From the IMG/VR virus record IMGVR_UViG_3300031261_000045: a DNA stretch of 35,780 nucleotides; one strand, written 5' to 3'. This document shows, one piece after another, positions 3,614-35,720 of this stretch. Position numbers and translations under genes: made by a program. A model generated the notes under the pieces. It was given only the letters and a program-made list of their open reading frames with translations. It was not told the origin of the DNA and did no database searches. How positions within the stretch are numbered: position 1 is the first letter of the stretch; the number at the start of each line of letters is the position of its first letter. The DNA is from a virus.

Positions 3614-3623
3614 ATTATTTAAC
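3614..3623 (-). promoter_or_regulatory. Late-promoter-like motif TTAAATAAT ~28 nt upstream of the ART gene start (minus strand)
   Basis: Minus strand reads catgtTAAATAAtgaaaacactGAGGAtgccaacaaacATG. The TAAATA core is at 3616-3621, followed by an SD and ATG at the same spacing seen at the other copies. Confidence 0.35.
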
Positions 3624-3768
3624 ATGAAGTTCGATCAAACCAAACGGTTGACCCAACCCGATCGCCAGCATACACTCTGGTGTGCGATCTGACACGAGTT
3701 GCAGGCCATGATCGCAACCGAGGCTGCGCACGGTCACGAGAATCGATCACAGGACGATCACGAAGGGC

Positions 3769-4054
3769 GACGAAAACAGTAGGTGTCACCCGAAATGGCT
3801 ACGAAAAGGTTATGCTGAGGGACAAATAGCTACGATTCAGTCAGTCAGAGGCGGCTACGAAAAGGTTATGCTGAGGATGGCGGCTACGAAAAGGCTACGG
3901 TAAAAGCTCTAGGTCGGCCTTGGCCTTGGCGTCAACGCCAGTCACACATTGTGGCGGCTACGAAAAGGCTACGAAAAGAGCGGACGTCCCCAGGCGTCGA
4001 TCCCCGGCTATGAACAGTCATCCTCTTGATGGCTACGAGAACTACGATTCCTTT
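3769..4054 (+). repeat. Second cluster of the GGCTACGAAAA(G) repeat family in direct orientation (about 8 copies, several as tandem half-sites)
   Basis: Copies at ~3782-3808 (GGTGTCACCCGAAATGGCTACGAAAAG), 3862, 3889, 3899, 3957, 3969 and 4015-4045 (CAGTCATCCTCTTGATGGCTACGAGAAC). Confidence 0.65.
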
Positions 4055-4262
4055 GGGACTGGCGGGCGCTCTCGATGATCTGCCCTGGATAGAAGGTCGC
4101 CGCAATCTCTCGCGCCCGCTTGGGATTGGGCGACACATCGATCGCCACCACGTGATCGTTCATGTCCACGATGTCGAACCACATGTTCTCCGGATTGAGT
4201 CGCGCGTGATAGTGCAATGAATGTTTTCGCTCGGTGATTTGCAAAAGTTCTCGCAGGGTCAT
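4008..4262 (-). CDS. Possible small protein (84 aa). Its C-terminal end runs into repeat sequence.
   Basis: ATG at 4262 (MTLRELLQITERKHSLHYHARLNPENMWFDIVDMNDHVVAIDV...). It is preceded by gaCTAAATActtgc, with no clear SD. The C-terminal ~20 codons are repeat-derived. The longer 204-aa ORF (4008-4622) is mostly repeat translation. Confidence 0.25.
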   Translation of the reverse strand: MTLRELLQITERKHSLHYHARLNPENMWFDIVDMNDHVVAIDVSPNPKRAREIAATFYPGQIIESARQSQRNRSSRSHQEDDCS

Positions 4263-4299
4263 GCAAGTATTTAGTCTTTGGCGGCACAAGATGTTAAAG

Positions 4300-4768
4300 T
4301 TTGTCGTAGCCATCCACCATACCGGGTGACTGGAGCTTCGTCGTGCGCGGACTCTCATGATTTTAGTAGCCATCCATCGGATGGCTGCATCCGATCGTCC
4401 CCCATTTGAGGTCTTCCGTTTCCGTAGCCAGCCAAACAAGATGGATGACTGTAATAGCGCCTTTGCTATCATGCCGTGCAAATACTTCCCGGAATGGTCG
4501 TAGGCAACTCCCCTTCCTTTTCGTAGCCACAGGAGTGGCTGCATCCCATCAGCCCGTGTAGCCGCTACGCAAGCCAGTTTTCGTAGCCATTCGAACAGGA
4601 ATGACTGCATCCCGGATACCAACGGGGTGACGGCTCAGCAGATTTTTGTAGCTGTCGGCGTTTTCGTAGCCACCTAAATGCGAATGCGTCTTTTCGTAGC
4701 CATCCCGATCGAGGATGACTGATTCATTATCCCAAGGCTGCGCCTGCTGCTTTTCATAGCCATACAGG
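4300..4768 (-). repeat. Cluster of ~9 copies of the same repeat family in inverted orientation (TTTTCGTAGCC...GGRTGACTG on the plus strand)
   Basis: Examples: TTTGTCGTAGCCATCCACCATACCGGGTGACTGG (4300), TTTTAGTAGCCATCCATCGGATGGCTGCATCC (4360), TTTTCGTAGCCACAGGAGTGGCTGCATCC (4517), TTTTCGTAGCCATTCGAACAGGAATGACTGCATCC (4579), and 4643, 4662, 4692, 4750. In several copies both stem halves change together (CAGCCATCC/GGATGGCT versus CAGTCACCC/GGGTGGCT), which preserves pairing. Confidence 0.65.
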
Positions 4769-34872: not shown

Positions 34873-34890
34873 CCAGGATGGGAATAGTTT

Positions 34891-35421
34891 GTGTTTGAAT
34901 TGAAAATTTGCGGCTACGAGGAACTTCAGCACGTCATTGCGCGGTGGCAGCCGACCCATGTGCTGAGTGTCCTGAACGGGATGGAGACGCTACCGGGCAA
35001 CCATCTGTTTATCGAGGTGAGTGACATTCCCCGGCCGATGGAGGGGCATATCCATCCGGCGCGGGCGCATCTGGAACAGGTCTTCGAATTCACCGCCAAG
35101 CTAACCGCCGACGATCGTTTGCTGGTGCATTGTTATGCGGGCATGAGCCGCAGCACGGCGATCGCCATCGGGGTATTGATCCAGCATGGCATGGACTCTG
35201 AGACAGCGTTCGATCATGTCGCGGCGATCCGGCCGATCCTGATGCCGAATGAGATGTTCATCCAACTGATCGATGAGTATTTTGCTCTGTCGGGTGATTT
35301 GGTGAAAATCGTGGCGGATTTCCGGGACAGTGAGATGCAACGGGTCAATCCGCCGGATGGGGTGCGCTCACAGGCCTCGATTGCGGCGATGAAGAGTTTG
35401 CTGTTGCGCATGGGCTATTAA
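34891..35421 (+). CDS. Cys-based protein phosphatase (dual-specificity / PTP-like), 176 aa, GTG start
   Basis: P-loop LVHCYAGMSRSTAIAIGVLI matches the HCxxGxxRS(T) active-site signature. RBS-like AGGATGGGAA sits upstream of the GTG. Confidence 0.55.
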   Translation: MFELKICGYEELQHVIARWQPTHVLSVLNGMETLPGNHLFIEVSDIPRPMEGHIHPARAHLEQVFEFTAKLTADDRLLVHCYAGMSRSTAIAIGVLIQHGMDSETAFDHVAAIRPILMPNEMFIQLIDEYFALSGDLVKIVADFRDSEMQRVNPPDGVRSQASIAAMKSLLLRMGY

Positions 35422-35705
35422 GGCTCGCGCGGCACCGACTGGAACAATTCGTCCACCCATCCCGGCGCCGGAGCATAGGTTGGTGTAAGCGGCACACAGA
35501 TATGGCAGACGATTTCGACATCCTTGTAACGTTTCAGCACGGCTTGGCCGGACGGATAGAGGCCGACCGGCGCGCCGCATTTGGTGCACACATGGCTTCG
35601 GTCCATCTTCGGATGGACCCACACCATGTCCGCCAAGCGCATAGCCAACAGGCGGATTTCTTGCGGTTTCTTCGCCATGAACTTTCCTTTCAACCAATCC
35701 AACAT
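35418..35705 (-). CDS. Small zinc-ribbon-like protein (95 aa)
   Basis: Two Cys pairs, CTKCG and CHIC, ~30 residues apart. The alternative overlapping minus-strand frame (35368-35697) lacks such features. Confidence 0.35.
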   Translation of the reverse strand: MLDWLKGKFMAKKPQEIRLLAMRLADMVWVHPKMDRSHVCTKCGAPVGLYPSGQAVLKRYKDVEIVCHICVPLTPTYAPAPGWVDELFQSVPREP

Positions 35706-35712
35706 GACGGTT

Positions 35713-35720
35713 CTCTAAAT
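35713..35720 (+). promoter_or_regulatory. Plus-strand CTAAATAC motif upstream of a partial ORF at the window edge
   Basis: tctCTAAATAccgtggcgatttttAAGGGAtgatgtcATG. The motif, then an SD, then the ATG at 35748 repeat the arrangement seen on the minus strand. Confidence 0.35.

Follow-up and report, generated by a model that had tools for sequence, protein, structure and literature searches.

Does a short A/T-rich motif that recurs just ahead of genes in a GC-rich viral genome mark promoters, and if so, which sigma factor reads it? This question is raised by the 35,780 nucleotides (nt) of the IMG/VR virus record IMGVR_UViG_3300031261_000045 (hereafter the window, meaning the whole stretch of DNA that was analyzed). 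A preliminary description, made from the letters of the window, had pointed to the motif (C/T)TAAATA, 5 to 35 nt upstream of start codons, as a candidate late promoter for a sigma factor resembling gp55 of phage T4. The placement of the motif, its conservation at orthologous positions, the lack of a -35 element, the presence of a gp55 homologue, and the spacing to the start codon all point in the direction of that proposal. We consider it likely that (C/T)TAAATA serves this jumbo myovirus as a -10-type box in late promoters of the T4 style and that it is read by the gp55-like sigma factor of the phage.

The window comes from an uncultured jumbo myovirus akin to Rak2, 121Q, and Atu_ph07. The best tblastn matches of its gp6-like protein, of 1128 amino acids (aa), were to Sinorhizobium phage Phosso (39.8% identity) and Agrobacterium phage Atu_ph07 (39.6%), followed by 121Q, PBECO4, and Rak2-type jumbo phages. 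A megablast search with half of the window against 50,697 phage records returned no matches; the phage is known from metagenomes only. Near-identical copies of it (2 mismatches per ~11-14 kilobases [kb]) are present in several metagenome assemblies. The samples in which it occurs are ERZ27250223, ERZ27249030, and ERZ27248503, JGI 3300045771 and 3300029945, and run SRR35489945. From such contigs we assembled a 52.6-kb composite consisting of the window plus 7.2 kb to its left and 9.6 kb to its right. Gene starts in the composite are the calls of the metagenome records themselves, which are independent of the preliminary description and so guard against circularity. A search of IMG/VR for related loci with the gp25-like protein found none. 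Relatives were obtained instead through homologous proteins and then the contigs encoding them: seven 20-kb pieces of large metagenomic contigs (49-63% GC) were reached via homologues of the gp25-like protein and the sigma factor, and their gp25-like proteins are 54-64% identical to that of the window. Annotated regions of Atu_ph07 (38% GC) and Phosso (49% GC) served as cultured comparisons.

An exhaustive scan of both strands found exactly eight copies of TAAATA in the window, six within CTAAATA and two within TTAAATA (Table 1). Each copy has the orientation of the gene behind it, and 5 to 33 nt separate it from the start codon. The manual scan behind the preliminary description had overlooked no copy, and the window contains none out of position; the coordinates given there hold for seven sites, and the last hexamer, placed at 35715-35720 (the register of CTAAAT), is in fact one base further on. 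The same description had put the GC content of the window at about 60%, when it is ~57%, and had argued that only a handful of copies would be expected. Dinucleotide shuffles give a mean of 4.44 copies (standard deviation 1.88), and 5 of 100 shuffles reach eight, so that the count is not remarkable; it is the placement that is significant. The 45-nt zones upstream of genes on the coding strand make up 1.2% of the two-strand sequence space, and they hold every TAAATA copy in the window, compared with 26 of the 426 copies (6%) of other A/T-only hexamers. The boxes stand ahead of virion genes, namely the operons of the gp25-like, gp53-like/gp5-like, and gp6-like/giant proteins, and the one plus-strand copy precedes a plus-strand gene. 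The small open reading frames (ORFs) of 84, 65, 57, and 44 aa that follow four of the boxes were each called independently in metagenome records.

The placement also extends beyond the window. When all hexamers in the composite were ranked, TAAATA came first of 4078, and for 14 of its 17 copies a called start follows within 40 nt (p = 2e-22; Bonferroni-corrected, 9e-19). At k = 7, all 10 copies of CTAAATA lie upstream of called starts, and one-mismatch variants of this heptamer show no upstream enrichment, except for CTATATA before the gp55-like gene. Across eight GC-rich loci (~196 kb), the 40-nt zones at called starts take up ~2% of the sequence space and hold 35 of the 51 TAAATA copies, and at least two of the misses precede conserved, uncalled lipoprotein ORFs of 37-38 aa. 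These ORFs (L014, ~14270-14390, and L015, ~14050-14170, both on the minus strand) begin with MIKGILAALA…, carry a lipobox-like …SA(V)AC, start 21-23 nt past a CTAAATA, and were overlooked by gene callers; they appear to encode a small lipoprotein, possibly an o-spanin.

A purely compositional origin can be weighed against these numbers. A/T-rich hexamers containing TAA might simply gather in the intergenic DNA and stop codons of a GC-rich genome; two of the eight copies (8181 and 25154) do overlap a TAA stop codon, and the total count is not above chance. Such an origin would not, however, account for the gap between 6% and 100% occupancy of the upstream zones, the top rank among all hexamers, or the retention of orthologous sites over a wide range of GC content. 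Nor would it explain orientation: all eight copies of TAAATA in the window are in the sense direction, and the coding strand of the local genes has no copy of the reverse complement, TATTTA. The hexamer controls effectively refute this explanation, and we give it negligible weight.

We then compared the positions of the box among relatives. It occurs 16-33 nt before the gp25-like gene in all eight genomes showing that gene (the window, L012 to L015, L019, Atu_ph07, and Phosso), 19-27 nt ahead of the leading gene in the baseplate operon divergent to the gp55-like gene in four of four genomes (the window, L017, L018, and L019), and directly past the giant structural gene in three of three (the window, Atu_ph07, and Phosso). 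In Atu_ph07, it is also found ahead of the portal and prohead-core genes. These orthologous positions are kept across 38-63% GC, with no megablast similarity in the phage collection. The base 5' of the hexamer varies (C at 21, A at 10, and T at 4 of 35 sites); C prevails in the window phage, L014, and L015, and A in the other relatives, Atu_ph07, and Phosso. Apart from this base, no position from -45 to -2 relative to the hexamer carried information, none exceeding 0.35 bits over the 35 sites.

The lack of a conserved upstream element bears on a second possibility, that the box is a -10 element for the primary sigma factor of the host, perhaps aided by a phage activator, and is not read by the gp55-like protein at all. 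The nearest cultured relatives infect Sinorhizobium and Agrobacterium, and the gp55-like gene itself carries CTATATA. Against this, there is no -35-like conservation, a scan for the sigma-70 consensus stayed at the shuffle level (12 found, 11.6 expected), and no TAAATA site was paired with a -35 element in the scan for sigma-70 promoters and terminators. The hexamer is sharply defined, with its one-mismatch variants unenriched, unlike the degenerate -10 elements of sigma-70 promoters. In addition, the ATAAATA/CTAAATA core recurs in relatives with enterobacterial and alphaproteobacterial hosts, in T4, and in Aeromonas phage Aeh1. Because the same core spans different hosts, the box appears to track phage lineage and gp55 rather than the host, and we regard recognition by a host sigma factor as unlikely.

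The distance between the motif and the ATG gave a further indication of how the box might work. Over the 35 sites, the gaps are bimodal: 10 sites have 4-6 nt, 25 have 16-33 nt, and none has 7-15 nt. If gaps were even over 4-33 nt, the chance of an empty 7-15 nt range would be ~4e-6, a value to be read with the partial non-independence of the sites in mind. The preliminary description had stated that most copies are followed by a Shine-Dalgarno sequence and then the ATG; this is so for the six long-gap sites in the window, which contain SD-like purine runs, but the two 5-nt sites (4268 and 23493) have none and leave no room for one. In T4, the 8-bp late box occupies -13 to -6 (PMC2988020), so that the start would be the sixth base past the final A of the box. 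A start ~6 nt past the box predicts either a leaderless mRNA beginning at the AUG or a leader of at least ~10 nt with room for a Shine-Dalgarno sequence, and the empty range would stand for leaders of 1-9 nt, which are too short for such a sequence without making the mRNA leaderless. The bimodal gaps thus fit a transcript start ~6 nt past the box, as in T4, and imply that some late mRNAs may be leaderless and would be translated as such. One library search on leaderless mRNAs combined with T4-like late promoters turned up no paper describing gp55-dependent leaderless promoters.

The short-gap class could also be taken to mean that the box acts in RNA, as an A/U-rich translation enhancer, an S1 site replacing the Shine-Dalgarno sequence, or an RNA processing site, since it stands where the missing Shine-Dalgarno sequence would be. 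This is hard to reconcile with the 25 of 35 sites at which the box is 16-33 nt upstream with a normal Shine-Dalgarno sequence in between, and a translational model leaves the empty 7-15 nt range unexplained. The boxes at 31942 and 23493, moreover, head operons in divergent regions, where a promoter is necessary: the first lies within 115 nt shared by the gp53-like operon and the gp55-like gene, and the second within 109 nt shared by the HExxH gene and the plus-strand gene 23597-24268, so that the HExxH gene requires a promoter there. We consider a role in RNA alone very improbable.

Proteins encoded downstream of the box, notably those in the 4-6-nt class, have N-termini of ~8-13 residues ending in [LIVF]-x-E. 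The N-termini concerned are MRYHEIIAE, MRYFELLAE, MHDIRRFIEIVTE, MRHDIRHWITLCE, MNDLRKWMQLTE, MTLRELLQITE, MSIRAWMRLVE, and MHATELFE. They resemble the T4 capsid-targeting sequence and the prohead-protease site of internal proteins and Alt (PMC9026906). Two of these proteins are ADP-ribosyltransferases, as is Alt, and by analogy the group may possibly consist of packaged, injected effectors. In L012 (9763-9796, minus strand), the called start of an ART-PolyVal gene is 27 nt past the box, and an in-frame ATG at 6 nt gives the N-terminus MRIHEIAMLAE; the box can thus help to correct start codons. A broader proposal would be that the late regulon is partly leaderless, with the box 4-6 nt before the ATG, that this class is enriched in capsid-targeting-like N-termini (two ADP-ribosyltransferases, comparable to T4 Alt, being examples) and would comprise packaged, injected effectors, and that the late switch may be gated by the splicing of two inteins from the sigma factor, described below. 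We put this combined proposal forward tentatively, rating its chance at slightly below even.

The preliminary description had also held that the window encodes the cognate sigma factor. Four separate parts of the 944-aa ORF at 32038-34872 on the plus strand match the PHROG annotation "sigma factor for late transcription." Two inteins were delimited in it by the standard rule (an in-frame insert with Cys or Ser first and Asn last, followed by Cys, Ser, or Thr); compared with homologues that lack inteins, the first adds exactly 344 aa. Matches to intein domains are weak (Intein_splicing, E = 0.02; LAGLIDADG_3, E = 2e-4). The predicted spliced extein of 275 aa can be aligned with uninterrupted homologues (270-290 aa) along 98-100% of its length, and it matches phrog_12791 (E = 4e-75) and phrog_234, "late sigma transcription factor" (E = 5e-18). 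A single-sequence phmmer search of the PDB with the extein did not reach gp55, and a Pfam scan of the extein gave no match. A profile built from 38 sequences of the family had T4 gp55 (7d7c_F) as its sole PDB match (E = 5e-10), with the sigma region-2-like core (profile positions 134-225) aligned to gp55 residues 23-116 and the N-terminal KYxYxNNKELL segment aligning as well; the C-terminus is basic (…KGKRGRKPKSAVH). The window therefore encodes a genuine, strongly diverged gp55 homologue, in agreement with the earlier claim. Its precursor would gain function only after both inteins have been spliced out, and late transcription would in that case require two such events. Most homologues, at 270-290 aa, are intein-free, and some matches of 400-450 aa may carry one intein.

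As described previously, the sigma gene lacks the late box and has CTATATAG instead (32000-32007, plus strand), 30 nt before its ATG and one base off the late box. We regard CTATATAG as a candidate non-late, -10-like promoter element for this gene. The lack of a late box here would fit the need for the sigma factor to be made before late transcription begins.

A third candidate for the reader is some other phage factor, either a second sigma or a DNA-binding regulator, with the co-occurrence of gp55 being coincidental. An RpoD-like sigma is likewise encoded by CBB and other Rak2-like phages (PMC5259590), our ~53 kb cover part of a genome of at least 259 kb, and the link between gp55 and the motif is an indirect one. 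Nevertheless, of the 8 positions in the T4 gp55 box, the motif shares 6-7; its placement is also T4-like, and the gp55 homologue is encoded beside the late operons. We judge this alternative improbable, to about the same degree as reading by a host sigma factor.

The mechanism that we favor, late transcription directed by the gp55-like sigma, would proceed as follows. Two inteins would leave the precursor to give the mature gp55-like sigma, which would bind the core RNA polymerase of the host. The resulting holoenzyme would recognize the box without needing a -35 element and would begin transcription ~6 nt downstream of it. In the window, the eight promoters would drive the baseplate operons (gp53-like to gp5-like; gp25-like, gp6-like, and the 3549-aa protein), together with the genes for the ADP-ribosyltransferase, the HExxH protein, and several small proteins. 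Two architectures are predicted, one with a gap of 16-33 nt that would hold a leader with a Shine-Dalgarno sequence and one with a gap of 4-6 nt in which the A of the ATG would be the start site, giving a leaderless mRNA.

Several points weigh against this mechanism. Three of the 17 TAAATA copies in the composite precede no called gene; one is 37 nt within a called TauE-family gene, whose start may be miscalled, one is 200 nt upstream of a plus-strand gene, and one is intergenic and faces an antisense gene. Sites were picked by exact match, so that the invariance of the hexamer is partly built in. The timing class, start site, and gp55 dependence are drawn by analogy, and the label "late" is an assumption for several box-associated genes of no known function. 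CTAAAT is one base from CTATAT, the alphaproteobacterial and rhizobial -10 consensus for sigma-70, a closeness that counts in favor of a host sigma factor. No gp33 or gp45 homologue was recognized in the window and its 17 kb of flanks (~53 kb). Taken with the CBB genome, in which the authors found no gp33 or gp45 homologues either (PMC5259590), this suggests that the activation mechanism may differ from that of T4. The identity of the reader is the chief remaining uncertainty, with gp55 by far the likeliest candidate.

The prototype for such promoters is the T4 late promoter, TATAAATA, which gp55 reads together with gp33 and the gp45 sliding clamp. The window phage resembles T4 in its TAAATA core, its lack of a -35 element, the location of the box on either strand before virion genes, its gp55 homologue, and a spacing that fits a start ~6 nt on. 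It differs in having C, A, or T where T4 has A at -12 and an uninformative -13, so that TAAATA covers 6 of the 8 T4 positions; in its gp55-like protein, which is ~275 aa and split by two inteins, compared with 185 aa for T4 gp55; in the gp33 and gp45 homologues, neither of which was seen in the window; and in having a class of sites that abut the ATG and are predicted to be leaderless. Closer to the window phage, ATAAATA before structural genes has been proposed as a late promoter in the Rak2-like phages CBB (35 sites) and GAP32, together with a gp55-like sigma (PMC5259590). These phages belong to the same broad group and share with the window phage the TAAATA core before structural genes and the gp55-like sigma, but the preferred 5' base is C, not A, in the window phage, L014, and L015. 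Atu_ph07 and Phosso, the closest cultured relatives, have ATAAATA at the orthologous positions. The late promoter predicted for Aeh1, CTAAATA from -12 with a strong C at that position, accompanies a diverged gp55 (PMC1524935) and is identical in its seven bases to that of the window phage. However, Aeh1 is a conventional T4-like gammaproteobacterial phage and not close kin, and the shared C is probably convergent.

T4-type late promoters of this sort are therefore already known, having been predicted in CBB, GAP32, and Aeh1, and such a signal is expected here. What is particular to the window phage is that a GC-rich, Atu_ph07-like lineage uses the C-variant, that the heptamer is almost perfectly specific, and that one class of sites abuts the ATG. 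At a GC content of 57%, copies of the box are few, and nearly every one is diagnostic. Promoters of this uncultured GC-rich jumbo phage can thus be predicted with hardly any noise, and the box can be used to define late operons, correct starts, and expose missed small genes such as the two uncalled lipoprotein ORFs. With these results, the logic of T4 late promoters reaches the Atu_ph07-like branch of jumbo phages, and the 5' base of the box (C or A) is shown to drift between lineages along with a strongly diverged gp55. From the spacing rule (4-6 or at least 16 nt) comes a prediction, open to testing, about the start site and leaderless late mRNAs. The general understanding of phage late transcription is unchanged, and the box, while useful for annotation, is unsurprising; the parts most worth an experiment are the leaderless class, the N-termini of the capsid-targeting kind, and the sigma factor with its two inteins.

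Table 1. Coordinates of the boxes, genes, inteins, and repeats discussed. Positions are those of the window unless a contig is named; gaps are counted between the motif and the start codon that follows it.
Feature	Position	Strand	Remarks
TTAAATA box	3616-3622	-	hexamer 3616-3621; ATG 3587 of ART-PolyVal gene, gap 28 nt; predicted transcript start ~3610
CTAAATA box	4268-4274	-	hexamer 4268-4273; ATG 4262 of 84-aa gene 4008-4262, gap 5 nt; no Shine-Dalgarno; predicted leaderless from A of ATG
TTAAATA box	8181-8187	-	hexamer 8181-8186; overlaps TAA stop of 3549-aa gene; ATG 8147 of 65-aa gene 7950-8147, gap 33 nt; GGAGG Shine-Dalgarno between
CTAAATA box	22669-22675	-	hexamer 22669-22674; ATG 22650 of gp25-like gene, gap 18 nt
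CTAAATA box	23493-23499	-	hexamer 23493-23498; ATG 23487 of 260-aa HExxH gene 22705-23487, gap 5 nt; no Shine-Dalgarno; predicted leaderless
CTAAATA box	25154-25160	-	hexamer 25154-25159; TAA of box is gp5-like stop codon; ATG 25130 of 57-aa gene 24957-25130, gap 23 nt; GGAG Shine-Dalgarno between
CTAAATA box	31942-31948	-	hexamer 31942-31947; ATG 31922 of gp53-like gene, gap 19 nt; head of baseplate-hub operon
CTAAATA box	35715-35721	+	hexamer 35716-35721; ATG 35749 of 44-aa hydrophobic ORF, gap 27 nt; ORF leaves the window, full gene called in L001
Off-start TAAATA	L001, 12243-12248	-	preceding base T or G, never C
Off-start TAAATA	L001, 12318-12323	+	preceding base T or G, never C
Off-start TAAATA	L007, 18365-18370	+	preceding base T or G, never C
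ART-PolyVal ADP-ribosyltransferase	2829-3587	-	PHROG/Pfam
MVP-shoulder protein, 829-840 aa	4825-7347	-	PF11978, E = 5e-18; weak Vault_3 repeat
Giant structural gene, 3549 aa	8180-18829	-	
gp6-like baseplate protein, 1128 aa	18830-22216	-	PHROG/Pfam, tblastn
gp25-like wedge protein	22228-22650	-	PHROG/Pfam
gp5-like hub/lysozyme	25157-28210	-	PHROG/Pfam
1136-aa gene of baseplate-hub operon	28207-31617	-	
gp53-like protein	31617-31922	-	PHROG/Pfam
gp55-like late sigma factor	32038-34872	+	PHROG/Pfam
Intein 1	32551-33582	+	aa 172-515, 344 aa; C172…N515, then T
Intein 2	33700-34674	+	aa 555-879, 325 aa; C555…N879, then C; weak LAGLIDADG match
Genes with similar N-termini ([LIVF]-x-E)	2829-3587, 4008-4262, 22705-23487		also five flanking genes in L001 and L007
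Repeat array	41-2067, 3762-4045	+	continues leftward in L007, 11400-14400
Repeat array, inverted part	4301-4765		

Within the operons, the gp25-like gene is succeeded without a gap by the gp6-like gene and then the 3549-aa gene, and the 142-aa gene 24519-24947 comes after the 57-aa gene. The box at 8181 probably also serves the downstream 180-aa gene and the MVP-shoulder gene.

One plus-strand gene is embedded among the minus-strand late genes. The ORF at 23597-24268 is a real gene (223 aa, or ~207 aa) according to coding statistics and a homologue in L013 (33% identity, E = 1e-17), and the ATG at 23645 is probably where it really begins. Two minus-strand ORFs, 23504-24253 (249 aa) and 24263-24541 (92 aa), were rejected as spurious on the basis of coding score and the same L013 homologue; the motif statistics are unaffected by their rejection. 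With the plus-strand gene real, the sigma70-like TTGACG-17-TAGAAG that had been reported for such genes, which is present at 23568-23596 (plus strand), stands at a sensible distance upstream of it. The stretch 24269-24518 has poor coding potential on either strand.

Short inverted repeats surround the box more often than in controls with shuffled flanks. Over the 35 sites (composite plus L012 to L015), the mean stem is 3.5 nt, compared with 2.97 nt in shuffles of the flanks, and 0 of 500 shuffles were as high. Examples are ATCGTTT-AAAT-AAACGAT at 8181 and CTGTCC…GGACAG at 31942, and one compensatory change was seen in an L014/L015 pair.

Lastly, the left end of the window holds an irregular, dense array of at least 28 copies of ~GGGTGGCTACGAAAAC, often with CAGTCACCC ahead, at a spacing of 33-155 nt. 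Scans of this repeat-rich end for tRNAs and Rfam families found nothing. The array occupies a ~3-kb stretch without called genes, flanks the 84-aa gene, and, among the loci compared, is confined to the contigs of this phage. It could represent early promoters, iterons, or protein-binding sites.

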